Source of the DNA: a virus
Taxonomy: Duplodnaviria; Caudoviricetes
Virus record (IMG/VR): IMGVR_UViG_3300030090_004814
Span: 1-60,507 of that record
DNA: 60,507 nucleotides
Direction: 5' to 3' (one strand)
The position numbers and the translations under genes are program-made. The first letter of the stretch is position 1. Every line of letters begins with the position of its first letter. Below are positions 13,932 to 44,846 of the stretch, one piece after another. The notes beneath the pieces are model-generated. The model was not told where the DNA came from. It saw nothing but the letters and a program-made list of their open reading frames with translations, and did not search any database.

Positions 13932-14109
13932 TTTTCTTTTTAAGTCTAGATTCTACGGCTTCAGAAAAAGAATTACGCTTCTTTTTAGGTTTGGTATGAC
14001 CATACCCTTTCTTCTTTAACTCAAGGTGCTTTTTATAAGTACCCGCCCTAACACCTTTACCAGTCTTAGGATCATACATCATGTGTGGTTTGAAATCTTT
14101 CTTTTTCAT
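13921..14109 (-). CDS. Small basic protein
   Basis: 62 aa, Lys-rich, PHMMYDPKTGKG; C-terminal SFSEAVESRL. Confidence 0.7.
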   Translation of the reverse strand: MKKKDFKPHMMYDPKTGKGVRAGTYKKHLELKKKGYGHTKPKKKRNSFSEAVESRLKKKSGY

Positions 14110-14372
14110 TTTTTCTTTTTCTTTTTCTTTTTATAAGAAGATTTTAAGAAAGCTGCACGTTCAGCTTTAGTGTATTTAGCTCTCTGCTTACCTGAAGCAG
14201 TCGCTTTTCGTTTCCTACGAGTTCCAGCAGCATACTCAGCAGAAGATAATGATTTTATAGCAGCCTCAGGTAAATAACGCTCTCCTGTCTCAGAAGACTT
14301 CTTACCCGACTTAGTACGCCATTTCTGTTTAGTCCAAGCTTTTAATGACTTCTGAGGCTTCTTTAAAGACAT
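14106..14372 (-). CDS. Small basic protein (DUF5872-like, C-terminal half)
   Basis: QKSLKAWTKQKWRTK..GERYLP..AIKSLS. Confidence 0.65.
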   Translation of the reverse strand: MSLKKPQKSLKAWTKQKWRTKSGKKSSETGERYLPEAAIKSLSSAEYAAGTRRKRKATASGKQRAKYTKAERAAFLKSSYKKKKKKKK

Positions 14373-19658: not shown

Positions 19659-20171
19659 CTACAGCAAGGCGGAATCTTCACCCCACACCTCCTCTACCAA
19701 AGTAGCCACTCTCTTGTTCCTTCTCGTCCCATCAGAATGGTACAAAGTTACATAGGGGTGACCACCACTCATCAAAAACTCACGTAACAAAAAACACTTA
19801 CCAGCATTCCTACCTCTCTTTGGAGGGTCTACACAGTAAATGGCTCCATAAGGCGTGATTACATATCTCGCCCATTCAGGGATCATCCGCACATCAAATT
19901 TCTCAAACACATCTTCTTTGGTGAAATGAGTCTTAGGTTTATTGAACATGGATTCGGCTAGGCGTTCAGAGTCAAATGTCCAAACCCGCCCTTTGTCATT
20001 TCGGATCGTTGCGTACCAGCGAGAGCAAATATATCGCTGTTTCATCTTCTTTAACTTCCCTTGTGGTGATCTTCTGTAAACAAAGCCATTTTTATCTATC
20101 TCGAATGGCGCAGCTTTGGCGATCTTCTTGGTTTCTATATTTTCTGTTACAATTTCAGTAATGTTTTCCAT
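19659..20171 (-). CDS. NUMOD4-like DNA-binding protein (no HNH catalytic motif seen)
   Basis: IPEWARYVITPYGAIY...GHPYVTLY..G.RRNKRVATLV pattern. Confidence 0.5.
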   Translation of the reverse strand: MENITEIVTENIETKKIAKAAPFEIDKNGFVYRRSPQGKLKKMKQRYICSRWYATIRNDKGRVWTFDSERLAESMFNKPKTHFTKEDVFEKFDVRMIPEWARYVITPYGAIYCVDPPKRGRNAGKCFLLREFLMSGGHPYVTLYHSDGTRRNKRVATLVEEVWGEDSALL

Positions 20172-20215
20172 GAGGTGCTTTTTCTTAGTTATTTTCTTAT
20201 TTTCTTATTTATTAT

Positions 20216-20310
20216 CCCCTACCTAAAAACTTCCTTAGAATAGGTTAAGCATATTATTTCATATTGTTGTAAAATGCTAAAGTAACTTATAGAAAGTTTT
20301 TGAGGTGGGG
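20216..20310. repeat. Bipartite conserved element, copy 1, in a hairpin
   Basis: CCCCTACCTAAAAACTT-N12-TTAAGCATATTATTTCATATTGTTGTAAAATGCT; second copy at 42953-43015. Confidence 0.85.
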
Positions 20311-20499
20311 TCAAGAGAAAGTGATTACTTATTTTTGTAAAAACTACCATTTCTGAGCCACAAAATAACCATTCTGAAAAAAGAGCCATTTAGAGCCATT
20401 TTAATTAATTGTTTGTTTTTTGAGCTAATTCCAGCCCTCTCATATGACGAAAATTTTTTCATATAAGGTATATATGTATAGCGAGCTTCGCAGAAAAAT

Positions 20500-20532
20500 C
20501 CTGGCCTCCAGGGTGGGGGTACCCCCTGGCCG
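20500..20532. other. GC-rich palindrome at strand switch (candidate pac/terminus site)
   Basis: GGGGGTACCCCC at 20515-20526 in AT-rich DNA between divergent late and early blocks. Confidence 0.4.
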
Positions 20533-20908
20533 TGCTAAGTTGATTCCTGGTCCATGATCCCCTAACACTTTACTACACTAACACTTGTCAAATGGATCAA
20601 GACTCAATGCTCAATGGCTATAATTTCACAAATTAAATAAATCGATCTTTTTTTATGGATTTGAGAAATTGCTTTTTTGATTGCAAGCTAATAATAAAAA
20701 AAGTGAAATAATGATAATATAATTATAAAAGGCTATTTTCTCAATATGCCTATAATGGCCCATATTTAGCTTATATGACCTTTGAACTATGATTCAGTGG
20801 TTTTATACCCTCTGAGCATTTAAAGAAAAAACCCTATTTTTATAGGGTGAAAATAGTATAAAATTAGTGCTTTTAATTTAGGGTATATGTGCTTTAATTG
20901 TAGGTATC

Positions 20909-21343
20909 ATGTTAAATCCTGATATAAAAACAGTCGGTGTCTCAATTGGGGCAAAAACCATAATTAAAAATGCTAACGATAAGAAAGAAGCTATTGATGC
21001 AATTACAGAGGCATTAAAAGAAAATACTTTTTTCTTACCAAACATTAACTCAAAAAATAGAGCTTATACGCAAGCTATATCACCCGATATTCAAAGCAAA
21101 ATTAACGATGCTAGATCTACAATTCTTGATCTCCAAACACAGTTTGGATCTGTTAAGTTTGGTAGATCATTACGTAAAGGTGAGCAAGATTTTATGAATC
21201 TTGAAATGTACAAAGCATGCAAAGCCTATGCATCTGATGATCAGATGGAGCAAGTTAATTTGTACTATGCTTGTGTTCCACTTGTAGAGGCAACAGCAAT
21301 AGACATTAAAGCATTAGCTTTGGCTATCTATAACGAGAAATAA
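20909..21343 (+). CDS. First early gene, hypothetical
   Basis: 144-aa ORF followed by terminator. Confidence 0.75.
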   Translation: MLNPDIKTVGVSIGAKTIIKNANDKKEAIDAITEALKENTFFLPNINSKNRAYTQAISPDIQSKINDARSTILDLQTQFGSVKFGRSLRKGEQDFMNLEMYKACKAYASDDQMEQVNLYYACVPLVEATAIDIKALALAIYNEK

Positions 21344-21368
21344 ACCCTTAAACCATATTAAAGCAATC

Positions 21369-21400
21369 GCCTCTAGGATTGATTTCCTAGGGGCTTTTGT
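21369..21400 (+). terminator. Intrinsic terminator
   Basis: GCCTCTAGGA/TCCTAGGGGC stem plus TTTTG. Confidence 0.65.
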
Positions 21401-22213
21401 GGTGTAAATGATAAGCGATTCAATAGCTTTTAGCGATAAGCCCTTAAAGGTTTCATATGGAGCTTTTAGGGGTTTATTTTGCTTTGTATCGTCAAAAGGA
21501 CTAATGCCTCGCAAGGGGTTTATTTGTGAAAATATGGACGGAATTTTGACAATGATATTCAAAGCATTAAGCCACAAAAGGCATTCAATATTGCTTTTAA
21601 AGGTTTCCTATATGGGGGCTTTTAGGGGTTTTAGGATCGTTAATTTGCCCTTACTAAATGAGGCTTATTTTAGGTCATTAAATCATTTAGAGGCTTTTAG
21701 GGGTAATAATTATTTAAATGTTTTTTATATAGTAGGGGTTTAAGTCATTCCTTTTGATTACTTGCCTAATGAGATAGCTATCTCATTACAGGATTTTTAC
21801 GTCCTGTAATCTCTGACAATTCTATTCAATAGCTATTGGTGCAAATCCTTAACTCGTTAATGATATATCAGATCCTTAGCAAGATTTGTAGCGCAAGACC
21901 TACGCCAAATGAGCGAACAAAATATATGGTAGAAGATTACACCATTGCATTAGAACGCATAATGCAATGCCTTAATCAGTAAAATTGGAAAAGGGAACAT
22001 ATGAGCATTGAAGTGTGAACTATGATCTATGATTCATGAGCTAATGAATCATGACGTTGTCCTACGTTCACATCGCTAAATGTACGACCTTATGAGAGTG
22101 TACTGTAATCAGTACAGAGCAGGACATTATTTTCACATAACCTGCACATCTCTTGAAATCATCACGACGATGGAGATGTGCAGTCATGTGGACGTAAACC
22201 ACAACGAAAGCAA

Positions 22214-22489
22214 ATGAGTATGTTAAAAGTTACATCGTACCCTGACAGGTATGATCATGCGACTACGTATAATATGAAGTCGATCACAGATCACCACCCC
22301 TATGCTGGTGATCATCACGCCAAGCACTCCCGCATTCATGCAGGGACTTATGGATTGGTTAGAATAAGAAAGAAGCCATCAGGCGATCTAAGTATATTCC
22401 CTACGAGCATCACTAGCACGGAGAGGAAAGAGGGACGCAGGTTCACAAGTAAGAAGAAACTAAAAGCAAGAGGGAGGAGAAAGAGATGA
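22214..22489 (+). CDS. Possible basic hypothetical protein overlapping the structured region
   Basis: ATG at 22214; stop overlaps an ATG (ATGA) for a 26-aa ORF at 22486-22566. Confidence 0.35.
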   Translation: MSMLKVTSYPDRYDHATTYNMKSITDHHPYAGDHHAKHSRIHAGTYGLVRIRKKPSGDLSIFPTSITSTERKEGRRFTSKKKLKARGRRKR

Positions 22490-22809
22490 GCAGGACAATA
22501 TCAGACAGGCTGGACGAAGGCGAAGAGGTAAGAGAGATTGAATTTACCAGTATAGATTTAACCTGAACAGCTTGGTGCATTGTTCAGAAATGCTAACGCA
22601 CCCACCCAATTCTAGAGGGATAACATTCTAGAGAACAGAAAGGCAAGCCATGAGATACGAATAAGACAGCCTCCTGGGCAAGAGATTAAACTGCCCTATA
22701 TTTTAAGTCTTCTATACTTCAATATTCAAGCTAAAGGTACAGGGATGCGTTGAATATTGAAGTATAGAGCATTTAAAAACGGCTCTATTTAACCTTAACC
22801 CATAAACAA

Positions 22810-23022
22810 ATGGATAGAGAAAGTATAAGAAAGTTTGAAAACACGACTAAGTTTTCAAGTGGAATCTTCAATAGAGGTATTGAAGTATTAAAGGAACACC
22901 ACGCCATGCACGGTAATTTTAAGTTACACAAGAAGCATGAGGATTCATTACGTTGGTGCATTGCCGACATGCGGAATGCCATCGCAAAAATAGAAGTGGA
23001 GATAGATGAACTCGCATCATAG
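22810..23022 (+). CDS. Early hypothetical protein
   Basis: 70 aa with A-rich leader. Confidence 0.65.
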   Translation: MDRESIRKFENTTKFSSGIFNRGIEVLKEHHAMHGNFKLHKKHEDSLRWCIADMRNAIAKIEVEIDELAS

Positions 23023-23036
23023 AGCAGTATAGATTT

Positions 23037-23213
23037 ATGTATAAAAATAAAAGGACTGTGCCTTTACACAGAAGACCAGTGCTTGATCTTATCAACAGTA
23101 AGACACCAAGCAACCAGGCAGATATATTATCTGCAAAGCAGGGGGATGAAAATCCCAGGAACAGCGGAAGTATTAACACCATGCGTAAAGCATTAAACTT
23201 GATAGGTGCATGA
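23037..23213 (+). CDS. Early hypothetical protein (58 aa)
   Basis: MYKNKRTVPL...; ATGA-coupled to next gene. Confidence 0.5.
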   Translation: MYKNKRTVPLHRRPVLDLINSKTPSNQADILSAKQGDENPRNSGSINTMRKALNLIGA

Positions 23214-23836: not shown

Positions 23837-24058
23837 ATGGGAAGGGTAGAGTATAAGAGGATTGAGGGCTATGAAAGACTAGCAGATGAGTTCGTTGACT
23901 ACCTGATTGAGTACTACCATTTTCAGAGTACTCCATCAGAGCATCTGTATTACAGATTAGTTGATGAACTAATTGAAAGAGGCATCATCAAAAGAGAAAC
24001 TTATGATGAGAAGAATGGCAGGGTTTTCTATGTTAGGATGCCCGCCCCACTAAAATAA
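23837..24058 (+). CDS. Early hypothetical protein (wHTH-like)
   Basis: LVDELIERGIIKR..GRVFY resembles a winged-helix wing. Confidence 0.55.
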   Translation: MGRVEYKRIEGYERLADEFVDYLIEYYHFQSTPSEHLYYRLVDELIERGIIKRETYDEKNGRVFYVRMPAPLK

Positions 24059-24070
24059 ACTAAACAATAG

Positions 24071-24120
24071 CAAGGCAACCTGATCCATGAACTCTGAATC
24101 ATGGACGGGTTGCCTTGTTT
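24071..24120 (+). terminator. Intergenic hairpin (terminator or processing site)
   Basis: CAAGGCAACC..TCCATGA/TCATGGA..GGTTGCCTTG followed by TTT. Confidence 0.6.
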
Positions 24121-24147
24121 CATTTAAACAAAGAAATAAAAAGTAAA

Positions 24148-24522
24148 ATGATTGCAGCAAATGAATGGCGTAAGAATCGCAAAGTAGGTTTTGAAATAAC
24201 CGATAGGTTAGAAGAACCTGGCTTTTATATGAAGTTTGAGAATGGCTTCATGGTATCCGTGCAGTGGAGTTCAATTAATTATGGGGACCACTATGCTACA
24301 GGAAAGAAGTTACCTGAAGAGGTGAGTTATTCACTTGAAGTAGAGATAGCTATCATCAATCCAGAAGGTGAGCTTATGGAAATCAATGCCGTAGATGATT
24401 CAGTAGTGGCTTACATAGGAGCAGATGAAGTAGCGGAGTACATGCACAGGGTATCTAATTTGAGGTATCACCGTGTAACAGGAAAGGTTATAGATCCGAC
24501 TAATCTTTTTTCCAAACAGTAA
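24148..24522 (+). CDS. Early hypothetical protein
   Basis: F.M.FENG..VSVQW...Y...EIAI motif seen in phage early proteins. Confidence 0.65.
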   Translation: MIAANEWRKNRKVGFEITDRLEEPGFYMKFENGFMVSVQWSSINYGDHYATGKKLPEEVSYSLEVEIAIINPEGELMEINAVDDSVVAYIGADEVAEYMHRVSNLRYHRVTGKVIDPTNLFSKQ

Positions 24523-25956: not shown

Positions 25957-26151
25957 ATGATAGACATAGATAGAATAGATGTCGCAATCCGTGCATTGGG
26001 AGATCTAGAATCACAAATAAGATACATGCAAGTAGTTCCAGCTGAAAGGCTAGAAAGAAAACTTGCTATTGAAAACATAAGAGAAGTACAAGACATCTTG
26101 TGCAAAGTAAAAATAGGAGCAAAGAAACATGCCAAATCACACACAAATTAA
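25957..26151 (+). CDS. Hypothetical protein
   Basis: MIDIDRID...; overlaps next gene. Confidence 0.55.
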   Translation: MIDIDRIDVAIRALGDLESQIRYMQVVPAERLERKLAIENIREVQDILCKVKIGAKKHAKSHTN

Positions 26152-26752
26152 ACTAAGTGTAAAGAAGAAAGGAAGCGGTAAGTACGCTAACTCAAAGAAG
26201 ATAGACGTACTTGACGCACCACCTGCTATGGCAGGAGATAGGATGGCAGCCTTGTTATCAAGGTTTACCTTCCAAAAGATAGTACCAATGCCTGACTACC
26301 ATGAAGACTATGGTGGCAGGTTGGATACAACTAAGCCTACTTCAGCCAGGCTGAGTGATGAGCCTAGTAGTAATGACTGGTACAGTTGGAGGTTAGACCA
26401 TTGGGATACTAAATGGGATGCCTATGATGTATACAGTGGTGTTGATACTTATAATGAAGATGAAACTATCAACCTGTACAAATCAGGCGGGCATTTTACA
26501 ACTGCCTGGGCACCTCCATACAGAGTCATCCACAAGATGCAGATGCTTTTCCCAGACTTTGAGATAAGTATGAAGTACCTTGATGAGGGTTACATGTTCG
26601 CAGGACAAATGTTCTCGAATGGTGAAGTAGTTGAGGCATCAGATAGAAGTAGCACACTGTTTGAAGTTATTGAGAAAGCCTACACCTTAGACTTTATCAG
26701 TGACGAGGAGAGGCACGAGATGCACAAAGAGAATGAGGAGGTAGGCGGATGA
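26129..26752 (+). CDS. YubB/DUF1281-like ferredoxin-fold protein
   Basis: WY.WR...W.TKWDA and F.TAWAPP...Y.DEG..FAG. Confidence 0.75.
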   Translation: MPNHTQIKLSVKKKGSGKYANSKKIDVLDAPPAMAGDRMAALLSRFTFQKIVPMPDYHEDYGGRLDTTKPTSARLSDEPSSNDWYSWRLDHWDTKWDAYDVYSGVDTYNEDETINLYKSGGHFTTAWAPPYRVIHKMQMLFPDFEISMKYLDEGYMFAGQMFSNGEVVEASDRSSTLFEVIEKAYTLDFISDEERHEMHKENEEVGG

Positions 26753-30332: not shown

Positions 30333-31487
30333 ATGTGGATAATCCCAAAGAATATATCAGACACCTATCCCTCTGTAGTGGTTACGAGGGAATCGGAAGT
30401 GGACTCAGAAGAGTTCTCCCTAATGTGCGAGAAATCGCTCATGTTGAAATCGAAACCTTCGCTATCTGCAACCTGGTTGCGAAGATGGAAGCGAACCAAA
30501 TTCATCCAGCACCTGTGTTCACGGACCTTAAAGAATTCCCATTCAGAAAGTTTCGTGGATGCGTTGACATCCTGTCTGGTGGATTCCCCTGCCAACCTTT
30601 CTCAGGAGCAGGACTCAAGAAAGCAACAGAAGATCCAAGACACTTGTTCCCCTACATCCTTGAAGGAATCAAAGAGTGTAGACCCACTGTCTTGTTCCTC
30701 GAAAACGTCGAAGGGATCATCAGTTGCAAGACAGCCGATGGAGAATCAGTTCTCCACTATGTCCTCAGATCGTTGGAAGAAGTGGGTTACATCGCAGAGG
30801 CAGGAGTATTCTCAGCGTCTGAAGTCGGAGCGACTCATCAGAGAAAGCGAGTCTTCATCTTGGCCTACTCCAGCAGCGAGGGATTGGAAAGGATACTACA
30901 ATGTAGAGAGCCAAAAGAAGCGGTTCAGAAACTTACTACCAGACGCAGTGGAAGCACAGGAGATGTTGAGTTGGCCTACAGCGAGGACATCGGATGCAGA
31001 GGGGGGAAGGATCGAGACGGAGATAACAGACAAAGGATTCAGGAGCAAGAGGAAGAAGAGCGACCAATGGTTTGGAGCGAAGCTAAGAGACGCAGTGGAG
31101 ACGCACGAGAATTGGCCGACACCAACAGTAGCAGAGGGAGGGAAGATTGGGAACAACCCGAACTATGGACAGCTAGGACTGAGCAACCATCCCGAAGTAC
31201 ATGGGCAGAAAGTGCAGAGGGAGAAGCTTCACAAGGACAGGAAAGGATTATCCAAAGCTGGCCTTCACGACCAGGCGAAGCTCAACAAGAGTGGGAAGAG
31301 CCGAGAGTTATTGTGGGGAACCCCAAAGGAGGTAGACAGCAGAGCAGCACACACAGACAGGGGCAAGAGCAACTTGGGGGAGCAAGTACAGCACAATACA
31401 GGGAAGAAGCTCAATGCGAATTGGGTGGAGCAATTAATGGGGCTGCCAGTGGGGTGGACCCAATTGCCAACAGAGTGGATCGACTAA
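30333..31487 (+). CDS. Overlapping-frame methyltransferase beta polypeptide (W[PG]T[PA] repeats plus motif IX)
   Basis: 384-codon ORF in the +1 frame; four W[PG]T[PA] units; ends LNANWVEQLMGLPVGWT (motif IX-like); true start uncertain. Confidence 0.75.
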   Translation: MWIIPKNISDTYPSVVVTRESEVDSEEFSLMCEKSLMLKSKPSLSATWLRRWKRTKFIQHLCSRTLKNSHSESFVDALTSCLVDSPANLSQEQDSRKQQKIQDTCSPTSLKESKSVDPLSCSSKTSKGSSVARQPMENQFSTMSSDRWKKWVTSQRQEYSQRLKSERLIRESESSSWPTPAARDWKGYYNVESQKKRFRNLLPDAVEAQEMLSWPTARTSDAEGGRIETEITDKGFRSKRKKSDQWFGAKLRDAVETHENWPTPTVAEGGKIGNNPNYGQLGLSNHPEVHGQKVQREKLHKDRKGLSKAGLHDQAKLNKSGKSRELLWGTPKEVDSRAAHTDRGKSNLGEQVQHNTGKKLNANWVEQLMGLPVGWTQLPTEWID

Positions 31488-31564
31488 GATTGTTAGGCAA
31501 CGGTGTTGTACCACAGGTTGCAGAAAAAGCATTTGTAACTTTACTAAGGAGGTTTAATGCCTAG
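30335..31564 (+). CDS. dcm: C5 cytosine DNA methyltransferase, catalytic (alpha) polypeptide
   Basis: Motifs I (LSLCSGYEGI), IV (GFPCQPFS), VI (ENV), VIII (QRKRVF), X (LGNGVVPQVA); motif IX absent. Confidence 0.9.
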   Translation: MDNPKEYIRHLSLCSGYEGIGSGLRRVLPNVREIAHVEIETFAICNLVAKMEANQIHPAPVFTDLKEFPFRKFRGCVDILSGGFPCQPFSGAGLKKATEDPRHLFPYILEGIKECRPTVLFLENVEGIISCKTADGESVLHYVLRSLEEVGYIAEAGVFSASEVGATHQRKRVFILAYSSSEGLERILQCREPKEAVQKLTTRRSGSTGDVELAYSEDIGCRGGKDRDGDNRQRIQEQEEEERPMVWSEAKRRSGDARELADTNSSRGREDWEQPELWTARTEQPSRSTWAESAEGEASQGQERIIQSWPSRPGEAQQEWEEPRVIVGNPKGGRQQSSTHRQGQEQLGGASTAQYREEAQCELGGAINGAASGVDPIANRVDRLRLLGNGVVPQVAEKAFVTLLRRFNA

Positions 31565-32165: not shown

Positions 32166-35100
32166 TTACTCAAGAGAAATAAACCCATTCTCTGTTTGTT
32201 CCAAAAGAAAGCTAGCAGCTTTAGAAAGTCTTGCCCTTACTTCTGGGTTAGAGCTATTCTTAAATACTTCTTTCATCCTGTTACTGAAGAACAAAGCAGG
32301 TACATAATTGTTTAACATTATGTTCTTATAACCTTCTTTAGTAAATAACTCTCCACCAATCTTCCTGACTTGTTCAGGAGTAGCTCCTAGTTTAGGGAAA
32401 GCAGGAGCATGTCTCTTAAATGTTTTCGCTGATCTCTTATAACTATTAACAAGATTCTGTAATGTATCTCTAAGTTCGTCATCAGACACTGGCTTTGACG
32501 TAGCAAGTTTGTTAAGTGCTTTACGCATAGCTAGTTTATCCTGCTCGATTGGTCTGGTAAAATTATATAAGGCAGTCTGTGGTTTTATCTCATAAGGTTT
32601 TAAAGGGGAAAATTCATCCCTTAATAACTTAGACATAGTGTACGTAGGGTCATCACTTAGCATACCTTTTATGTTTTCACTAAGCCTCATGAAAGTTGGA
32701 GCACCGTAAGCTTCTTTAGCAAAGCTAGCTAAACCTTTAGCAGCTTTAGTTCCTAAGTCATCATGCTCAAAAAAGATAGCCTCATCTTTTGAATTCTTAT
32801 TGTTCAGCATGTTGTAGAAAGCTTTAGTAGCTATCTGACCTTCGAGGAAAGGAGCTGAAAAAAGAATATGCATTCCGTGACCCATAGCCTCTAAAGGACT
32901 CTCCCCTCTTCCTAACGATCTTTGTATCGCAGGGAAAGCATCCAAGTAAGTAGAGTAAGGATTCAAGTAAGTTAAATCCCAAGAGTAATACTTACCATTC
33001 TTCTTGGTATATAAGAATGTATGGTTACGTAAATAAGAAGGCACACTAAGTTGTAAAGCTTCCTTCTCTTCATCTCCTAAATCATCAGCAGGTCTGTGCC
33101 CTAACCCATAAACAAATATTAGTAGTGCAGCTTCCGCAGCAAACGTAGCCACTGTAGAAACAGCTCCAACAGTAGCAGCTCCAGCAGCTCTTTGTAATCC
33201 TCTTTTCCTTATGACAGGATTTTTTGACTTAATTTCTTGAGCAGCTAACATGGTATTGTTAACCATTATCCTGCCTACTTCTGCTCTGAATCGATAATAA
33301 GGAGCCACTAAAGCACCCGCAGTAGATCTACTGAAAGCTTCTGTACCAGGCATGTTTTGAGAAAAGTATTGAGCAGTCTTCTTTAACTTATCAATTGCCA
33401 TTAGCTCAAGCTCTCTATCAGACTTGCCTTTGAATCCAGTATCTATTCCACTCTCATCATCATATGCTCTAGCTTCTTGAAGATTGTTTAACTCATATTC
33501 GTACACAGCTATTTTGTAGAATGAGTCTGAAGCTAATGAAAGTTTCTGTAGTTTGTTCTCAAGCTTCTTAGAAATCTTATACCCTTTCTTCCCTACTTGT
33601 TTTAAAGTATCTAATAAAGACTTATCACTATCTGCTTCAATAGGAGGAAGACCATTCTCTTTCTGTAATTCATTTAACAGATCAGAAGTTTGTTCTCTCA
33701 AACTTTCCTCAGTGATAAGTCCGTTGACCATGTCCTCATAAAGAGCAACAGAAAATTCTCTTTCAATAACCCCATCCTTAACAAGTTTATTCACATACTC
33801 ATTAACTTCTTTAGGGCTTGTGATAGCTCGTGCTAACTCTCCTTTGATCTTAGTTATCCCTGTGCCTGGTGGTAATCCTAAAGACAATGCGAAGTATGTT
33901 GTGTTACCTACTATGTTTCTAATGTAGTAGGTAGTACTAGTAAGTGTCTTTATACCTAGCGAGTATCCTATACTTTTCCTGACTATACCATTTATAGATT
34001 TAGTTAACTTGTCAGTAAGCCTTGTTCCTTCTTGAACAAAGGTTCTTGCTTCTTGTATGTCATTAATTAATTCAGGTGGTGCGTAATAACCTTTACCAAT
34101 TAGAGGACTAAAAACATCGTCCTTGTCTGTCTTTAAAGCAGTATCTATTAGTTGGTAATCATCTAACCCTAGTTCATTCCTTTGTTCTCTAGTCACTAAC
34201 CATCTCTGATCAGGCTCTCCAGCTGTCCCAAGTCTTTCTAAGTTAGCATCAACGGCAAGCCTGTTGACTAAATAACTAACATTCTCATAAGTTTTTACAA
34301 CATTCCAAGTGCCGTCAGGTATTTCTCCTAATGCTTCCCTCACAGCTTTTGGGAGATCTTGTTTCTTTTTAAGAACATCTGCATCTAAATCTTCTCCATA
34401 CTTAGAAAAGTTATTCTTGAAAGTAGCTTCTAAAAAAGCTTCTTCACTTTGACCCTCAGTTTCTAAAGCTTGAGCTAAAGTTTTAGCTAGCCCACTAAAC
34501 TCTGCTCTCTTAGCTGACTCAGATTTAGTTATCCAGTCTACATCATTGTTTGCGTAAGCTTCTTTATCTTTTTTGATGACCTCTGCTGAGATTTCATTTT
34601 CTTGATTTTGTTTAAAAATTTCTCTAGCTGCATTCAACCTAAGTGCTTTTGCTTTAGGATTATCTTTAGAAAATATAAACTCTTTCCAAGAAGCGTCTTG
34701 GAAGATCCTATACGAACGAGTTAAGTAAAAACCTTCTTGAGCACTGAACCGTGCTTCTATGTCCGTGTACTCATCTTTATCTATCTTTGATAACTGTTCT
34801 GAAATGTATCGTGAGGATGCAGTTATTTTAAATCTCAGTCCTCTAAGTGTTTCAGCTAACTCAGGAGATTTCTCACTGATCTTATTTAAAGCTTGATCTA
34901 CTCTAGCAAGGGTTTCTTGTCGTATCCTTTGCTTTTCCTTTATCACTGCTGACTCATAATCACGGTCTGCTTTTTTAACAGCCTCTATAACATCTTTAGG
35001 ATTTTCTAAATCTCTAGCAGCTAACTTAGCAGCGTCTCTTTCAGCAATAAAGACCGCATCAACTTCTTCACTTACGTTGATATTGTTTCTTTCTCCAGTA

Positions 35101-38100
35101 GCTTGTTCTAATAAAGTATTTATTTCTGCGGTAAACCCACCCCATCCTTCATTAACAAGTCTTTCTATCTGCCCTATATAAGATTCAACTTCTGTACGGA
35201 TACCATTCATGAAGCTTTCTCTCCGCTCCATTTCTCTCTTCCATCTAGGATCTTTTAAGCCTGTGAACCAGGACCAAAAAGTTTTGATCCAATTAGGTTT
35301 ACCCTCAACAGGGCTAGTGTAACTACCTAACTGACCTATAGGTACTTCAATCAAAGTTCTAAATTCTTTTTCAATGTCTGTCAAAGCTTGCGGGTCATCA
35401 GCTTTAGTTATTACATTTCTTATTTGTTCCAGCCCTGCTTCAGCAGTAGCACCCCCATTGTACACAATCATTTTTTCAGGGTTAAAAACATAACCCTTTC
35501 TTAGATGTGTCCTAGCAGTGCCTAAAGAATCTAACTTCAAAGCTAACTCTTTACTTACGTCAGATGCTAAATCCTTATCAAGACTTTGTGAGATTAAGTC
35601 AATAGAGTTATCTAATGACTGCATTGCTATTTCTTTTAGCTTTGGAAATGAATTTAATATGGTTAAAGAATCTCTATAATCTTTACCACTTACTGCTTCA
35701 GCGGTTAGCTTTTTGATAGCATTGATTGCAATACTTTTAACAACTTCATCCCCTTGAGCTTCAATGTCCTCTTCAGAAAAAATTCCTGTATCAAATAATA
35801 AATCATTTTCTGAAGAAATAAAAGATAAGAACTTATCATCAATCCCTAAATCAGCAAAAGATTCAACGCTTAGATTATCATTTAAAAAAGTATCTTCAAT
35901 AGATTTAATTGTAAACTCAGATTCAAGGTACCCATTTAAAGAAGCCTCTTCTCCTTTTGTTTTTCTATAAGATGACAAGGCATCTATTAAAGCAACTTTG
36001 TTGAACTCAAGAACACCCTCATCAACAGTCACCGCTGCTAAGTTTGGTGAGTTTGTTGTTCTTACTATATATTTTTTTGTTATATTATTTCTGACATGAA
36101 CAGCAGCATCTACTAGTAATTCATTAGCCCCCTCAGTAGTCTCTGTGGTGAAGTCAGTCTCTTGGCTGTTTGCTGAAAGAGCAGGTCCCTCATCAAGGTA
36201 TATTGCAGAAGGTGGGTTGTTATCTATAATGGTTTCAACAGCTTGTGTTTCTGTAGCTACGTTAGTCCCAAACTCATTAAGTACTTTTATTAAGAAAGTA
36301 TCTACTGTGTCACCACTTACTTTAGAAGTAACCATGATATCTTTAATTCTACCAACTGTTACTCCTTCAACATAGTTTTCGCTACCCCTTTGACTTATCT
36401 CAGGAAAAGTTATTTTTTCTTTTCTAGTAGAGACACTCTCTAAAAAGTCTACGTATTTATCCCTAATTACATCTAGTTTAGCACGGTTGAAATTTGGTAT
36501 GCTCTGTTGTACTTCAGGATCAGAAAGCAAGTAGGCTTCTACTTTTTCTATGTTAGCTTGCTGAACTTTCTCTGCTGTTTCTTCTTGGTTGCGTACCCCT
36601 TTATTTGTAATCTTTCTTTTAGAAACTTCATTTGCTTTAAGCCAAAGAGAATCTTCAGTTGTTATAGGTGTTTCTTCTGGCTCAACAGATAGCTCAACAT
36701 CTTCAACTTCTAACTTTTCTTTTGAAGCTTTTTCAAAATCAACGAACCTCCCCCTGATAGAACTAGCTAATGTATTTGTGTAAGCTGCTTCTATATCATT
36801 CAAATACTTCGCTACACTCTTGTTGATAAATGAATACTGATCCTTGCTCTCTTGAACATTTGGATCTAAGAATCCTCTAACATGTTGAACGAGGTCTTGT
36901 AAGAACTCTAAGAATCCTTTGTCTTTAGTTATGTCAGTCAGCTTAGTTTCGCTCTCAATAAATTGTCTAGTAAACTCTGAAACAATTTCATCAGCCTCCA
37001 TTGTAGGGCTTTGTTCTGAGTTTGGTTCTAATTCACCAGGCAGTATTACATCATCAACCTCCATGCCTTTGTAAACGGCAACGGAGTTTCTTAGCTTATC
37101 TATCCCCTCTCCTTTAGCTAACGACTCATATACTTCAGTAAGTTTCTTTTTAGAGAACTGAAGGAAGTTTAAACCTTCTTCCTGAGAAGATCTCTTCCTC
37201 CACATATCTTTAAGCAAAGAGCTTTCACTAACGTGCACAAACTCGTGTGCGAGCATTGTATCTAAAGCTTTTTTCCTGGCTTCTTTTCCTTTTAAATCTT
37301 TTAACTGCGCTGTGATTTTATCGGTGTCAATTTGTAGTACAATGTTTGGGTTGTCCGTTGTACCAGCATTGATACCAACTCTCATTGGGTTATTATCAGG
37401 GAGCTTGCCATCAACATACTGTATGAATATGTCTTCTTTAGTGTTGGTAGGAACCCAACCACTGATGTAATCAGCTACATCTTCTTTAGTAAGTTTACTT
37501 CCGAAGTTTGTCAGGATAGTTCTGCTAGTTGGTTTCTCAGCTAATGTTTCTTCAAACTCTTCAACGGCTCCTTCTATCTCTGCATCCCCCACAACAGTAA
37601 CATCTTCGGCAACAGGAGCCTCTGCACCTGCTTCTTTAGTTTCAATTGGGTTAGTAACTTTTAAAGATTCTTGTAACTGTTCAGCACTGATAACTAAACC
37701 TGCTTCATCTAAAGCCTGAGAGGCTTGGGCAAGAGCGGTGTTCAGAGCGACTGTTTTCTTGTTCTCTTCGCTTTTTACATTGGTAGATTTCAATAACCTA
37801 TCTGGGCCAAAGAAAGTTTCTGACCCAACAGTCATAGTACCACCTAGAATACTTCCCAACCCACCCGCATAAAGACCTTGAGATATGCGCTCCTTCATGG
37901 GAACAAACTCATTCAATACAGCACTGTCTACAAAAGATCCTATGAATTCATCAAGACCTTCTTCAGCACCTTCAGCAGCAGCACTGCCTAATGCTTTTTT
38001 AATTAAGGTAGAGTTTGCTTCCTTCTTGTATAACTCAGCAGCTTGTTTAGCAATAGTATTTCTTAAAAGAGCTTTAGTTGTTTCCTCATTCGCTTTAAAA

Positions 38101-40115
38101 GCAACATTAGGCACATTGTTTATAGCATTCTTAAATTGTCTAAATGATGCTCCTTTGGCTACAATGTTTTCTAAACCACCTGCACCAAAAGCAGAAAATC
38201 CAGAAGTTATAACACCAGTCAAAGTACCTCTTGCAAAAGCAGCTCCTAAAGCTTTGTCATGTTTTTCTTCATGACTCATATCTTCTGGCAAAGAGTTATA
38301 GATAGAAGCGTAGGTAGCTCCTGCTGATCTGTTAGCAGAAGTTAAAAACAAAGAAGAAGTAATACCAAACTTCTGTGCTGTTTGCTCATTGAAACGACCT
38401 ATAGCTAATGGAGTTTTCTTAGGGTCAATAGCAGCTTCATTTGCAATTCTTTTGATTGCTTGTTCTTTAGAAGCAACGTTATCTAATTTTCTACCAACCC
38501 CTAAAGCTTTAGCCCCTTTAGTTAATGGACCTGCTAAGAAGTAAGTAGAAGCTAAGTCTGCTCCGACAGCTGGAAGTATAGTAGCTAAGTCATAGCCTAC
38601 TCCAAACTCCCCACCGAAAAGACCATCTAGTTCTCTCCTTTGTGACTGTTTCTTTTGAGATTCTTTTAAGTAATTAGCAGAAGCGTCGTTGCCTAGTAAG
38701 GCTCCAATAGAAGCACCAATCCCTACGATTGCTTCAGGGACAGATGCACGGACACCACCCCACCAGTTCTTTGAAGCATCATAGTTTTTCTCATTAGAAA
38801 GAAACTCATCAACAAAGGCAACTCTATCCTCTTTCCATTTCTGTGGGTTCTCAGCTTTTGCTCTAGCCCACTTGTCTCCAACCGCTGATTCTAAATGATC
38901 ACTACTAAGTACATCATCAATGTGATAAGATCTAGAATACATATAGTTTCTTCTAGATTCACTAAGTGCTTTTCTCTGACTAGGAGTAAGTCTGTCATCT
39001 TTTAAAAGCTCATTAAAAGCTTTTGGGTTCTCCATTACAGTTGGGTGTGCAATAGGCACTCCCATTGGAGTAAGTCTTAAATTGTTTTCAGGTTTGTCTT
39101 CATCATACTTAAAAGCACCCTGGTTGTTTGTGTGGACAATAGATAGTTCTTTAATTAAGTTAGCTATTCTCTCATTGGAAAACCTGTAAGAGTTATCAAC
39201 AGAAATACCAGCTGCTTCTGCATCTCCCCATCCTTTTCGTTTAGCAAACTCATTGAGAAAAATTGGAGTAAGGTCTTCTATTTCTTCAGGTAATTCTTCT
39301 GATAAAATTTGTGTTATCTTTTCAGGTCTGTCTGCAAAGATTTGCTGTAACCAATTTCCTTTTGTTCTATAAGTCTCAAGATCAATTGAGTTAACAATGG
39401 CATCGTTAATTGTTTTAGCATAAGGTGAGTCTTTATCACCAAGCATCTCACGTAAAATACCTAAGTCTTCTTCATCTAAATCTGATTCAAAATTAGTTTT
39501 ACCAGGCACCCTTGTAGATTCTAACCCCTCAGAAACTTGCCATAGATCTCTAGGATCAACAGCACCTAGAGTCACTGCACTCAATGCTCTTTGACTAGCT
39601 AACTTCTTTTTATCAGGAGAGGTTCCTAAAACATCATAATCTCCTACTTGTACAGTTCCTCGACCACCTTCTAAAATAGTAGCAAAAGGTAGTTCACCAC
39701 TTGCCATTAAAGATTTTTTAGCCCTATTAAGATATTCATTTTGTTTGGCTGTATCAATTGCAGCAAAATCTACGTTAGGGAAAACTCTATTTACAATACG
39801 CTCATCATTTAAACTACCTGATTGGTAAGCGGTTGATTGATTAGCTAGTGCTGCATAATCTTCATCAGATACTTCCTCCCCATTAGAAGCCCAATTAACA
39901 TAGTAGTTCTGAATATCCGCTTCTTTCTCTCTAGTTAACTCGCCTCGTTTAAAGAGTTCTGTCCGGTAGTAATCTAAATACTGGGGTAGATCCTGATCTG
40001 TTGTTAAATCCTCATCACTGTTGATTTGTTTCCATTGAGGATATGAATATAAAGAACCTAATTCATTATTAATTGGTGTTTCAGCAGTCGCTAAATTTGA
40101 TCTGTTAAGTGCCAC
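32166..40115 (-). CDS. Giant internal virion/ejection (polyvalent) protein
   Basis: 2649 aa; HExxH zincin motif (AHEFVH); Gly/Ala hydrophobic segments; third of three large core genes. Confidence 0.75.
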   Translation of the reverse strand: MALNRSNLATAETPINNELGSLYSYPQWKQINSDEDLTTDQDLPQYLDYYRTELFKRGELTREKEADIQNYYVNWASNGEEVSDEDYAALANQSTAYQSGSLNDERIVNRVFPNVDFAAIDTAKQNEYLNRAKKSLMASGELPFATILEGGRGTVQVGDYDVLGTSPDKKKLASQRALSAVTLGAVDPRDLWQVSEGLESTRVPGKTNFESDLDEEDLGILREMLGDKDSPYAKTINDAIVNSIDLETYRTKGNWLQQIFADRPEKITQILSEELPEEIEDLTPIFLNEFAKRKGWGDAEAAGISVDNSYRFSNERIANLIKELSIVHTNNQGAFKYDEDKPENNLRLTPMGVPIAHPTVMENPKAFNELLKDDRLTPSQRKALSESRRNYMYSRSYHIDDVLSSDHLESAVGDKWARAKAENPQKWKEDRVAFVDEFLSNEKNYDASKNWWGGVRASVPEAIVGIGASIGALLGNDASANYLKESQKKQSQRRELDGLFGGEFGVGYDLATILPAVGADLASTYFLAGPLTKGAKALGVGRKLDNVASKEQAIKRIANEAAIDPKKTPLAIGRFNEQTAQKFGITSSLFLTSANRSAGATYASIYNSLPEDMSHEEKHDKALGAAFARGTLTGVITSGFSAFGAGGLENIVAKGASFRQFKNAINNVPNVAFKANEETTKALLRNTIAKQAAELYKKEANSTLIKKALGSAAAEGAEEGLDEFIGSFVDSAVLNEFVPMKERISQGLYAGGLGSILGGTMTVGSETFFGPDRLLKSTNVKSEENKKTVALNTALAQASQALDEAGLVISAEQLQESLKVTNPIETKEAGAEAPVAEDVTVVGDAEIEGAVEEFEETLAEKPTSRTILTNFGSKLTKEDVADYISGWVPTNTKEDIFIQYVDGKLPDNNPMRVGINAGTTDNPNIVLQIDTDKITAQLKDLKGKEARKKALDTMLAHEFVHVSESSLLKDMWRKRSSQEEGLNFLQFSKKKLTEVYESLAKGEGIDKLRNSVAVYKGMEVDDVILPGELEPNSEQSPTMEADEIVSEFTRQFIESETKLTDITKDKGFLEFLQDLVQHVRGFLDPNVQESKDQYSFINKSVAKYLNDIEAAYTNTLASSIRGRFVDFEKASKEKLEVEDVELSVEPEETPITTEDSLWLKANEVSKRKITNKGVRNQEETAEKVQQANIEKVEAYLLSDPEVQQSIPNFNRAKLDVIRDKYVDFLESVSTRKEKITFPEISQRGSENYVEGVTVGRIKDIMVTSKVSGDTVDTFLIKVLNEFGTNVATETQAVETIIDNNPPSAIYLDEGPALSANSQETDFTTETTEGANELLVDAAVHVRNNITKKYIVRTTNSPNLAAVTVDEGVLEFNKVALIDALSSYRKTKGEEASLNGYLESEFTIKSIEDTFLNDNLSVESFADLGIDDKFLSFISSENDLLFDTGIFSEEDIEAQGDEVVKSIAINAIKKLTAEAVSGKDYRDSLTILNSFPKLKEIAMQSLDNSIDLISQSLDKDLASDVSKELALKLDSLGTARTHLRKGYVFNPEKMIVYNGGATAEAGLEQIRNVITKADDPQALTDIEKEFRTLIEVPIGQLGSYTSPVEGKPNWIKTFWSWFTGLKDPRWKREMERRESFMNGIRTEVESYIGQIERLVNEGWGGFTAEINTLLEQATGERNNINVSEEVDAVFIAERDAAKLAARDLENPKDVIEAVKKADRDYESAVIKEKQRIRQETLARVDQALNKISEKSPELAETLRGLRFKITASSRYISEQLSKIDKDEYTDIEARFSAQEGFYLTRSYRIFQDASWKEFIFSKDNPKAKALRLNAAREIFKQNQENEISAEVIKKDKEAYANNDVDWITKSESAKRAEFSGLAKTLAQALETEGQSEEAFLEATFKNNFSKYGEDLDADVLKKKQDLPKAVREALGEIPDGTWNVVKTYENVSYLVNRLAVDANLERLGTAGEPDQRWLVTREQRNELGLDDYQLIDTALKTDKDDVFSPLIGKGYYAPPELINDIQEARTFVQEGTRLTDKLTKSINGIVRKSIGYSLGIKTLTSTTYYIRNIVGNTTYFALSLGLPPGTGITKIKGELARAITSPKEVNEYVNKLVKDGVIEREFSVALYEDMVNGLITEESLREQTSDLLNELQKENGLPPIEADSDKSLLDTLKQVGKKGYKISKKLENKLQKLSLASDSFYKIAVYEYELNNLQEARAYDDESGIDTGFKGKSDRELELMAIDKLKKTAQYFSQNMPGTEAFSRSTAGALVAPYYRFRAEVGRIMVNNTMLAAQEIKSKNPVIRKRGLQRAAGAATVGAVSTVATFAAEAALLIFVYGLGHRPADDLGDEEKEALQLSVPSYLRNHTFLYTKKNGKYYSWDLTYLNPYSTYLDAFPAIQRSLGRGESPLEAMGHGMHILFSAPFLEGQIATKAFYNMLNNKNSKDEAIFFEHDDLGTKAAKGLASFAKEAYGAPTFMRLSENIKGMLSDDPTYTMSKLLRDEFSPLKPYEIKPQTALYNFTRPIEQDKLAMRKALNKLATSKPVSDDELRDTLQNLVNSYKRSAKTFKRHAPAFPKLGATPEQVRKIGGELFTKEGYKNIMLNNYVPALFFSNRMKEVFKNSSNPEVRARLSKAASFLLEQTENGFISLE

Positions 40116-43044: not shown

Positions 43045-44806
43045 GATCTGTTGCTAAAATAGTAGAAAGTTTCTTCAAACTTCTTCCTTTTGAAAAAGTT
43101 CCATCTGAATTTTTCGTAGGAGGGTCAACTGCAACCAATCCGTGCCTCTGCCTGGCTAAATCTAAACACAAAAAAGCAGCATCCGCTAAGTCTGGTGATT
43201 GCCCAAAACGAGCTTTATAGTCAGGTTTTGACTCTAATTTCATGCGTAGCGTAGTGCTTTTTACCAAATCATAGTTCCTGCTAGTTATTTCTTTAGCTAA
43301 ATCACTTGATATACCAAACAATTGCTTTGTCCTACATAACTCTTTGCCAACAAACCAAAGCTCACTTACTCTGTTAAAGTAAAGCTCATACCCTGTTAGC
43401 TTACTTTTAGAACTAACCTTCTTATCTGATGCCTTCCCACCAAAAGAAACACGAAGAATCCCCTCACCAAACTCTGCCGCTAGTATGTCAGCCAAAGGAG
43501 AACCCGCACCTGTCGAGTCAATTGCAAGATCATATGGTTGAACCCCCCTCTTTTGACACGCCTCTTTCACCTGCTGAACAATCTGATAAGATCGGGGGAC
43601 GGCTTTGTTGGTGGCATCGTCAGTAAGTTGAACAGATTCTCCCAACTCACAAACAAATTGACCTGTTATATCTACTCCAACTTTACCAAAGTATAAGATA
43701 GATCTGTCACCATTGTTAGTAAATGCAGGGTCAAATCCCGCAATCGACGTAGGTTTGCTTTTCCATTTAACCTGATTCATGGACCCTGATCTTATGATCT
43801 CTGATTCACTGTACACAGTTTCAGCTTCATCTGAGTCAAAGAATACTGCTCTGACCATTCGCATGTACCCTCTACTCTCAGGACCTAGCAACTCAGCATC
43901 CTCTTCAATTTTTTGTGCAGTAGGTAGCCAAGGGTATAAGTCTTCTCCTGCTAAGACATTAGGAGATCTTTCTCCATCGAGTCTTATATACGTCCCTCCC
44001 CATTTAGTTTCCCATGTATCATCTGTTTCTACGTTAACAGATTCCCAACCTCCACCTTCTTTAGGAGTACTCCACACACCGAAAGCATCGAACCTACTTG
44101 ATGGGTTACTCATACCAACTAGCGAGAAGTAAGGGTTTTTTGACAAGTTTGATAGCCCTGCTTGTAGAATAGCTTCGCTTAATTCACTAAGCTCGTCTGC
44201 AATCAAGAAGACTTTTTTCTGCTTAATACCTATAAACTTACCAACCGCTTCTCTTGTTTTTGATTTTTCAGCAGCAATCAAAGATAATCCAGCTCTTTCT
44301 ACTAAGTTCCCTTGTTCATTTATATAAGCGACATTACCGATTGAATCTCTAATCTTAAAAGGAGCACCTTCTAAAACAGAGAGTAAACTGATCACTGAAC
44401 CCCAAATCCTTTTCCGTGCTTCTCTGAGCGTGGTAGAAGTGAGTAGGATTAATGTTTCATGTGGAGCAGCCATCCAATTGATAATACCCCACGCTGCCAT
44501 TGTATGTGACTTACCACTAGATGCAGCACCTCCTACAGCAACATATTTATTTTTGAGACAAGTCCTTACTATTTCTTCTGCCCAAGGATGTCTTACCATT
44601 AAAGGTTCAGGAACATCAGAGTTATTCCAAAGCTCGTCACAAAGTCTCCAAAAATAATATTCTCTAGCAGAGTCTTTTTTATGTTTAGAAAAACCGTACA
44701 GGAGTGCAGAGATCAGATTACATGGCGGTATTTTCATACCACCGACATCCATCATTTTTGTTTTAGCATCTATAGTCGGCTCATAAATAATTTTAGTTGG
44801 AGTCAT
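43037..44806 (-). CDS. terL: Terminase large subunit
   Basis: Walker A GAASSGKS, Walker B LIADE, coupling motif MSNP, RNase H-like GFDPA...D and SPDLADA. Confidence 0.9.
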   Translation of the reverse strand: MTPTKIIYEPTIDAKTKMMDVGGMKIPPCNLISALLYGFSKHKKDSAREYYFWRLCDELWNNSDVPEPLMVRHPWAEEIVRTCLKNKYVAVGGAASSGKSHTMAAWGIINWMAAPHETLILLTSTTLREARKRIWGSVISLLSVLEGAPFKIRDSIGNVAYINEQGNLVERAGLSLIAAEKSKTREAVGKFIGIKQKKVFLIADELSELSEAILQAGLSNLSKNPYFSLVGMSNPSSRFDAFGVWSTPKEGGGWESVNVETDDTWETKWGGTYIRLDGERSPNVLAGEDLYPWLPTAQKIEEDAELLGPESRGYMRMVRAVFFDSDEAETVYSESEIIRSGSMNQVKWKSKPTSIAGFDPAFTNNGDRSILYFGKVGVDITGQFVCELGESVQLTDDATNKAVPRSYQIVQQVKEACQKRGVQPYDLAIDSTGAGSPLADILAAEFGEGILRVSFGGKASDKKVSSKSKLTGYELYFNRVSELWFVGKELCRTKQLFGISSDLAKEITSRNYDLVKSTTLRMKLESKPDYKARFGQSPDLADAAFLCLDLARQRHGLVAVDPPTKNSDGTFSKGRSLKKLSTILATDQL

Positions 44807-44846
44807 GAGATACTTGAAATATAGCAGTTATAATAGTATATGTTAA
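44807..44846. promoter_or_regulatory. Overlapping divergent promoters terL/terS
   Basis: - strand TTAACA-17-TATATT; + strand TATAAT at 44829-44834, 5 nt before ATG. Confidence 0.5.

Follow-up and report, generated by a model that had tools for sequence, protein, structure and literature searches.

A conserved folded element as candidate RNA leader of a small early operon in an uncultured marine tailed phage

Comparison of the early region of an uncultured tailed phage with its few detectable relatives revealed a non-coding element of about 260 nt (positions 21930-22189, plus strand), in which helices with changes on both sides of their pairs alternate with single-stranded linkers that hardly vary. 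Judged from these comparisons, the element may be a structured RNA peculiar to its lineage and serve as the 5' leader of a small early operon, with hairpins of the RNase III type, a reading to which we give about an even chance of being right.

The window, i.e. the whole stretch of DNA that was analysed, comprises all 60,507 bp of an IMG/VR virus record (IMGVR_UViG_3300030090_004814), which is complete and has terminal repeats. It belongs to a tailed phage from marine and estuarine metagenomes, in which genes for DNA polymerase, helicase, terminase and tail fibres could be recognised. The site is located just 3' of the switch from a long minus-strand structural block to a plus-strand block of small genes, and its non-coding stretch covers positions 21344-22213. 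Searches against PHROG and Pfam identified, among the neighbouring proteins, only an HNH endonuclease and a few families of unknown function. Elsewhere in the genome, two long ORFs (384 and 409 aa) occupy different frames of nearly the same 1.2 kb (30333-31564, plus strand), while at 44806-44840 a divergent terminase gene (minus strand) and an HTH/terminase-small-like gene (plus strand) stand 33 nt apart, a gap that leaves no room for two ordinary promoters.

A blastn search of positions 20200-23100 against 50,697 phage records returned no match, and translation of the same interval with alternative genetic codes (TGA=W, TAG=Q) opened no convincing frame. Relatives were collected with a 738-aa neighbour protein, which yielded 35 related viral loci; by blastn only three of them (L004, L005 and L015) have DNA in common with 21300-23100, and in patches only. 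Exact-pattern scans added no viral contig and returned 27 metagenome stretches, 8 of which were true relatives by blastn; the scan of genome contigs gave 9 stretches, in MAGs of unrelated phyla, from which no host was drawn. With identical copies dropped (L004 = L060; L015 = L044 = L065), 9 distinct variants from 3 viral and 8 metagenome contigs were kept, representing only about 4-5 independent lineages, and two variants (L057 and L066) were shortened by contig ends. No description of the 21930-22189 element was found in the literature searched, the candidate tables of PMC10690425 lying outside that search.

The first-pass annotation had read positions 21767-22770 as one large candidate ncRNA of about 1 kb. 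The span is instead a patchwork, in which about 260 bases of conserved and folded non-coding sequence are found alongside two small protein genes and a single hairpin of great length, and the suggestion of a novel structured RNA or processed leader fits the stretch 21930-22189 and the hairpin at 22701-22778, both of which would be RNA. Several of the underlying observations were borne out. The perfect 22-bp palindrome at 21767-21788 is present and unique in the genome, and sequence, repeat scan and MFE fold all recovered the stems at 21785-21810, 21943-21969, 22013-22073 (nested), 22099-22116, 22142-22183 and 22563-22587, as well as the long stem claimed at 22711-22768, which is part of the hairpin 22701-22778; the stems that it listed at 22234-22313 fall within a protein gene and are at chance level. 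The remark that the first ~450 nt lack any ORF was right in substance, this part holding only frames of 40-48 aa that are not kept in relatives. The T-loop-like GGTGCAAATCC (21838-21848), on the other hand, is not conserved in relatives, and ARAGORN found no tRNA in the window. The annotation had matched the span to no known class, GOLLD and ROOL included, and at gathering thresholds no Rfam 15 family matched anywhere in the window. At E values up to 10, positions 21300-22900 gave 10 Rfam matches, the best with 22.3 bits against a threshold of 108; eight of the ten were miRNA-precursor models on plain hairpins, and none fell in 21930-22189.

Folding against dinucleotide shuffles, the check that the annotation had proposed, showed an excess for the whole 1004 nt (z of -3.8 on the plus strand and -4.0 on the minus strand; 30 shuffles), but this excess is not spread over the 1 kb. 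When segments were folded separately (plus strand, 100 shuffles per segment), it was confined to three islands, 21767-21815 (z -5.3), 21930-22189 (z -4.1) and 22701-22778 (z -9.6), whereas 21816-21929 (z +1.1), 22214-22489 (z -0.55), 22486-22566 (z -0.6) and 22567-22700 (z -0.6) folded at chance level. The genome baseline, determined from 61 control windows of 260 nt, had a mean z of -0.7 (sd 1.6), and z was -4 or lower in 4 of these 61, so folding energy alone is weak evidence. These four control windows (plus strand: 24001-24260, z -5.5; 26001-26260, z -4.3; 14001-14260, z -4.9; 21001-21260, z -5.0) fold as strongly as the 21930-22189 element, or more.

The conserved element has five helical units (P0, P1-P3, H3 and H4), with near-invariant single-stranded linkers between them:

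21935-21977, plus strand: P0, two-part hairpin (outer stem 21935-21939/21973-21977, inner stem 21943-21952/21960-21969)
21978-21990, plus strand: near-invariant single-stranded linker AGTAAA.TTGG...
21991-22091, plus strand: P1-P3, one long irregular stem-loop
21991-21994 with 22088-22091, plus strand: P1a
21997-22000 with 22080-22083, plus strand: P1b
22014-22020 with 22066-22072, plus strand: P2, in a register that differs from that of relatives
22029-22037 with 22044-22052, plus strand: P3, invariant
22099-22116, plus strand: H3, hairpin of 6-7 bp
22117-22141, plus strand: conserved linker ..AGCAGGACA.TAT..
22142-22183, plus strand: H4, 11-bp outer stem with a variable inner hairpin

In the inner stem of P0, both sides have changed in 6 of 9 pairs among the variants. 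Its outer stem, of the GUCUA/UAGAC type, covaries better than the P0a pairing considered at the outset (with GTAAACTT), which it replaced; the two P0a pairings are mutually exclusive, and both are possible. P1a and P1b together make a long-range helix closing the central domain, and in relatives P1b shows swaps from C-G to U-A (three variants) and from A-U to C-G (one variant). Relatives keep 10-11 pairs of P2, which the window forms from different bases. Both-side changes also affect 3 of the 6 pairs of H3 (9 variants) and 7 of the 11 positions of the outer stem of H4, where an end-anchored comparison found 76 of 77 cells paired, while the inner hairpin of H4 is different in each lineage. RNAalifold run on the alignment predicted 47 pairs, 12 of them changed on both sides. 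Of 377 cells in the MAFFT alignment, 95.8% are paired; both sides have changed in 11 of 42 pairs, compared with a shuffled mean of 5.8, and none of 500 shuffles, in a control that ignores relatedness, reached this count. With the better P0 outer stem, a second alignment (A6), itself fitted to the model, gave 96.3% paired cells and 11 of 40 pairs, a count reached in 1 of 500 such shuffles. Slid controls, with the 3' partner shifted by 1-3 columns, retained at most 4 both-side pairs and 28-38% pairing.

An open frame over P3 (beginning 'MIHELMNH') was considered as a gene and discarded: a 1-nt deletion shifts it in L004 and a 5-nt insert cuts it to 16 codons in the window, and because the frame is not kept it is not a gene. 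Downstream of H4, neither the terminator scan nor inspection of the variant 3' flanks found a terminator or U-tail in 7 variants; the 3' flanks of H4 and of the hairpin 22701-22778 are A-rich (TTTAAAAACGG) in the window and its relatives alike. As a side observation, positions 22117-22130 in the leader linker and 22488-22501 in the first codons of ORF2 form a 14-nt repeat (13/14 identical), and the linker of relatives is similar to the 'ATGAAAGCA' with which ORF1 and ORF2 start; this likeness could reflect chance, duplication or a shared binding site.

Minimum free energies of the element are lower on the plus than on the minus strand in six of the seven variants (in L015, for instance, -74.7 against -58.3), the exception being the window itself, whose minus strand folds slightly better (-75.1 against -73.2). 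Moreover, G.U pairs occur in P0b in 8-9 of the 9 variants, and together with the plus-strand bias they favour an RNA read from the plus strand over an element of duplex DNA. Closer variants came from contigs of four other marine or estuary DNA runs. In one of these (run X7), differences from the window amount to 5 of 246 positions over 21919-22164, as against 35 of 333 over 22219-22551 and 30 of 463 over 21300-21762, and run X8 shows the same trend, the contigs not necessarily sharing one strain. Judged by these differences, constraint on the non-coding element looks no weaker than on the adjoining protein gene.

A covariance model built from P0-P3 found all 9 variants with E values of 3e-19 or lower. 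Beyond these it returned only opposite-strand palindromic echoes and, in the remaining 32 sources, matches with E > 2, and nothing was found in the 30 more distant relatives (L006-L038). The ORF1 profile matched the same three viral loci only; since RNA model and protein profile share their loci, element and ORF1 make up one module confined to a subclade.

Downstream of H4 the following features were recognised:

22214-22489, plus strand: ORF1, small basic protein of 91 aa, without Shine-Dalgarno sequence
22486-22566, plus strand: ORF2, encoding a 26-aa peptide; its start overlaps ORF1 (ATGA) and is preceded by a strong GGGAGGAG ribosome-binding site
22567-22700, plus strand: strain-specific insert, absent in L004, L005 and L015, with no excess folding overall
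22701-22778, plus strand: long hairpin, 27-35 bp, without U-tail
22773-22816, plus strand: 44 nt identical to the L004 lineage, extending into the start of ORF 22810-23022

A counterpart of ORF1 (63-69 aa) follows H4 directly, at a distance of 13-45 nt, in all 7 variants that reach that far, so that the element is upstream of the same gene family and on the same strand in 7 of 7. The ORF1 proteins have the blocks SIT..H and DLSIFP in common. Between L015 and L067, 12 of the 14 nucleotide differences in ORF1 are in third codon positions, with 12 synonymous against 1 non-synonymous codon changes; on this substitution pattern, ORF1 is evidently a real gene. ORF2 is a small protein gene as well: 21-aa peptides resembling it occupy the same slot in L004, L005, L045 and L015, while L067 has a different 34-aa frame there and L059 none.

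A hairpin of 27-35 bp is present after ORF2 in all six lineages examined. The sequences differ, 2-5 G.U pairs are included, and the plus strand gives the more stable fold in 6 of 6 (e.g. -46.4 against -28.9 kcal/mol); it is the structure, not the sequence, that is conserved, relatives preserving the pairs by compensatory substitutions. Rfam offered for it only miRNA-precursor models, far below threshold. Neither this hairpin nor H4 has the features of an intrinsic terminator or was called in the terminator scan. The 27-35 predicted pairs of the long hairpin in 6 of 6 lineages are in keeping with an RNase III substrate, i.e. about 20 bp or more, mostly continuous and on the mRNA strand. In what would be a common transcript, the long hairpin is placed between ORF2 and ORF 22810-23022, and H4 before ORF1. 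A smaller hairpin, 22563-22587, begins at the ORF2 stop codon; in a loose-end consensus from run X3 it recurs with one compensatory change (A-U to G-C).

The cassette around the long hairpin varies among close relatives. In a contig of run X9, position 22544 is joined directly to 23025, with 2 other letters between, so that the end of ORF2, the insert, the long hairpin and ORF 22810-23022 are all missing; a 13-nt direct repeat, CAGTATAGATTTA, bounds the missing 480 nt (22545-23024), with copies at 22548 and 23025, and suggests gain or loss of the cassette by recombination. Loose contig ends from runs X7 and X8 continue after 22551 with hairpin sequence of the L004 type and rejoin the window at 22773; therefore the hairpin cassette in the window's close relatives is a different one. 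The hairpins thus appear to have been swapped between lineages.

Upstream of the element, the region comprises:

19659-20171, minus strand: HNH endonuclease gene at the end of the structural block (PHROG/Pfam scan)
20909-21343, plus strand: first plus-strand gene, 144 aa, no family match
21369-21402, plus strand: intrinsic terminator T1, a 10-bp stem followed by TTTTGTGG (terminator scan)
21435-21488 and 21506-21529, plus strand: terminator-like hairpins T2 and T3 with T-rich tails
21459-21706, plus strand: three local copies of GGCTTTTAGGGGT as duplicated T2-like units, absent elsewhere in the genome
21767-21810, no strand: perfect 22-bp palindrome overlapping a 9-bp hairpin

In relatives, the slot of the first plus-strand gene is taken by a non-homologous gene of 116-117 aa. 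T1, T2 and T3 all combine a G+C-rich hairpin with a U-run, the stem of T1 is kept in relatives through compensatory changes, and the segment 21360-21530 folds with a z of -5.6 on the plus strand against -2.9 on the minus strand. For the palindrome, a genome search allowing up to 3 mismatches gave 1 match, and 0 in 100 shuffles. It is absent from L004, L005 and L015 but lies in the stretch that is covered by the closer metagenomic variants, whose similarity to the window starts at about 21756; it is a candidate operator for a dimeric DNA-binding protein. A sigma-70 scan upstream of the element found no convincing promoter at a position common to the variants. A further motif, ATTCAATAGCT(T/A)TT..., occurs in two copies (21418-21442 and 21824-21848; 19/25 identical), one after terminator T1 and the other about 100 nt upstream of P0, where relatives have ATCAATAGC- or ATCACTCGC-like motifs; it is possibly a promoter or a binding site. 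For the motifs TATTTAACCTTAAC and ATTCAATAGCTWTT, counts in the genome do not exceed those in shuffled sequence.

In the arrangement that we propose, the upstream gene would be closed off by up to three tandem intrinsic terminators (21369-21529), and a new transcript would start somewhere between about 21530 and 21930. Because a -10-like ATAAT box lies inside P0, part of P0 might precede the true start. The transcript would fold into P0, the long P1-P3 stem-loop, H3 and H4, and continue as an operon through ORF1, ORF2 and onward. H4, directly upstream of an ORF1 that has no Shine-Dalgarno sequence, could set the stability, processing and translation start of ORF1, and the hairpin 22701-22778 may serve between cistrons as a processing or stabilising site of the RNase III type, comparable to the R sites of phage T7. 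We infer, in other words, that the element is transcribed, acts in cis and is cut by RNase III. A plain processing or stability leader does not explain the invariant linkers, which suggest a specific binding partner.

These same linkers make a free-standing RNA the main rival: an early phage ncRNA of about 260 nt acting in trans on a host or phage target, for instance as a protein sponge or antisense regulator. Covarying helices separated by near-invariant linkers typify RNAs that have a specific partner, the architecture is multi-domain, and in metagenomic variants the element has changed less than the protein gene next to it; yet the absence of a terminator or U-tail after H4 in 7 of 7 variants, the start of ORF1 within 13-45 nt in every case and the lack of a promoter in the scan make such a molecule unlikely. 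Its boldest form, a new class of multi-domain phage ncRNA that is made at the start of infection, binds a specific partner through the linkers AGTAAA.TTGG..AAGGGAA and AGCAGGACA.TAT, is more constrained than the adjoining early proteins and takes over a host function, is likewise doubtful. An element acting as DNA, be it a replication origin, a single-strand initiation signal or a hairpin promoter or operator between divergent modules, would account for the setting, some 2 kb of DNA with few genes (20172-22213) that separate the divergent late and early modules and contain local repeats and the palindrome, for the ATAAT box inside P0 and for the nearly equal folding of both strands in the window's own copy. 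It is made less likely by the strand asymmetry, since G.U pairs kept on the plus strand become A.C mismatches on the other and the plus strand has the more stable fold in six of seven variants, with a margin of up to 16 kcal/mol (L015); the window has no iterons in common with relatives, and the P1 pairing spans 100 nt and would be hard to extrude from duplex DNA. Taken together, we regard it as quite improbable.

Functionless inverted repeats that arose by chance in AT-rich spacer DNA are very improbable: compensatory changes are found in every helix class, divergence is below that of flanking coding DNA, and the linkers are invariant across lineages whose flanks do not align. What speaks for chance repeats is the equally strong folding of 4 of 61 control windows and the confinement of the element to one subclade. 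Hardly credible, finally, is one structured ncRNA of about 1 kb across 21767-22770. It could appeal to the z of about -3.8 over the whole span and to the lack of an Rfam match explaining it otherwise, but some 350 nt of it (22214-22566) are protein-coding, 4 of 7 segments fold at chance level, as do some of its stems, the L004, L005 and L015 lineages have neither the palindrome nor 22567-22700, and 22545-23024 is wholly missing from one metagenomic variant. With about one third coding, parts strain-specific and one natural variant devoid of 22545-23024, this proposal was rejected.

For a leader of an early operon, the closest analogue may be the early region of phage T7, which contains the RNase III processing hairpins R0.3, R0.5, R1 and others. 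In both phages long irregular sense-strand hairpins lie in an early polycistronic region (here in a presumed transcript), before the first small early gene (here H4 and P1-P3) and between cistrons (22701-22778), and lack a U-tail. The T7 R sites differ in that they have no sequence relation to the hairpins described here, for which RNase III cleavage is a prediction, and need neither near-invariant linkers nor a long-range helix such as P1. The processive antitermination leader RNAs HK022 put (two stems of ~70 nt) and EAR are also stem-loops in the leader of a phage early operon, with an action in cis that is presumed for our element; in the present case, however, the terminators are upstream, no plus-strand terminator-like site was found downstream up to 24000, and the architecture is different. 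A hairpin early promoter of the N4 type has a 5-7-bp stem and a 3-nt loop and needs a virion RNA polymerase, whereas in the conserved hairpins here the loops measure 4-15 nt and the stems 6-11 bp, and no such polymerase was identified, since the 2649-aa ORF at 32166-40115 (minus strand) had no Pfam or PHROG match. GOLLD and ROOL are large ornate multi-helix non-coding RNAs that are sometimes carried by phages; compared with them, the element is much smaller (~260 nt), lies directly upstream of a gene, belongs to one phage subclade and has no Rfam match at either threshold. According to PMC10690425, 8,495 structured RNA candidates with a mean length of 67 nt (range 29-151) were derived from IMG/VR. 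The element resembles these candidates as a covarying non-coding motif on IMG/VR phage contigs, upstream of a gene and absent from Rfam, and differs from them in its ~260 nt and five helical units.

Early regions of uncultured marine phages are mostly unannotated, and the present analysis separates real small genes from non-coding RNA in one of them and provides a testable, covariation-supported RNA structure with exact helices. Its general impact is moderate, because the element is restricted to one subclade and thousands of phage RNA candidates have already been catalogued. If the element has a partner of its own, it would represent a new phage RNA class. If it is a leader, it would illustrate in compact form how the first genes expressed are controlled at the RNA level, among them an ORF that has no Shine-Dalgarno sequence, although strong ribosome-binding sites are otherwise the rule in this phage.
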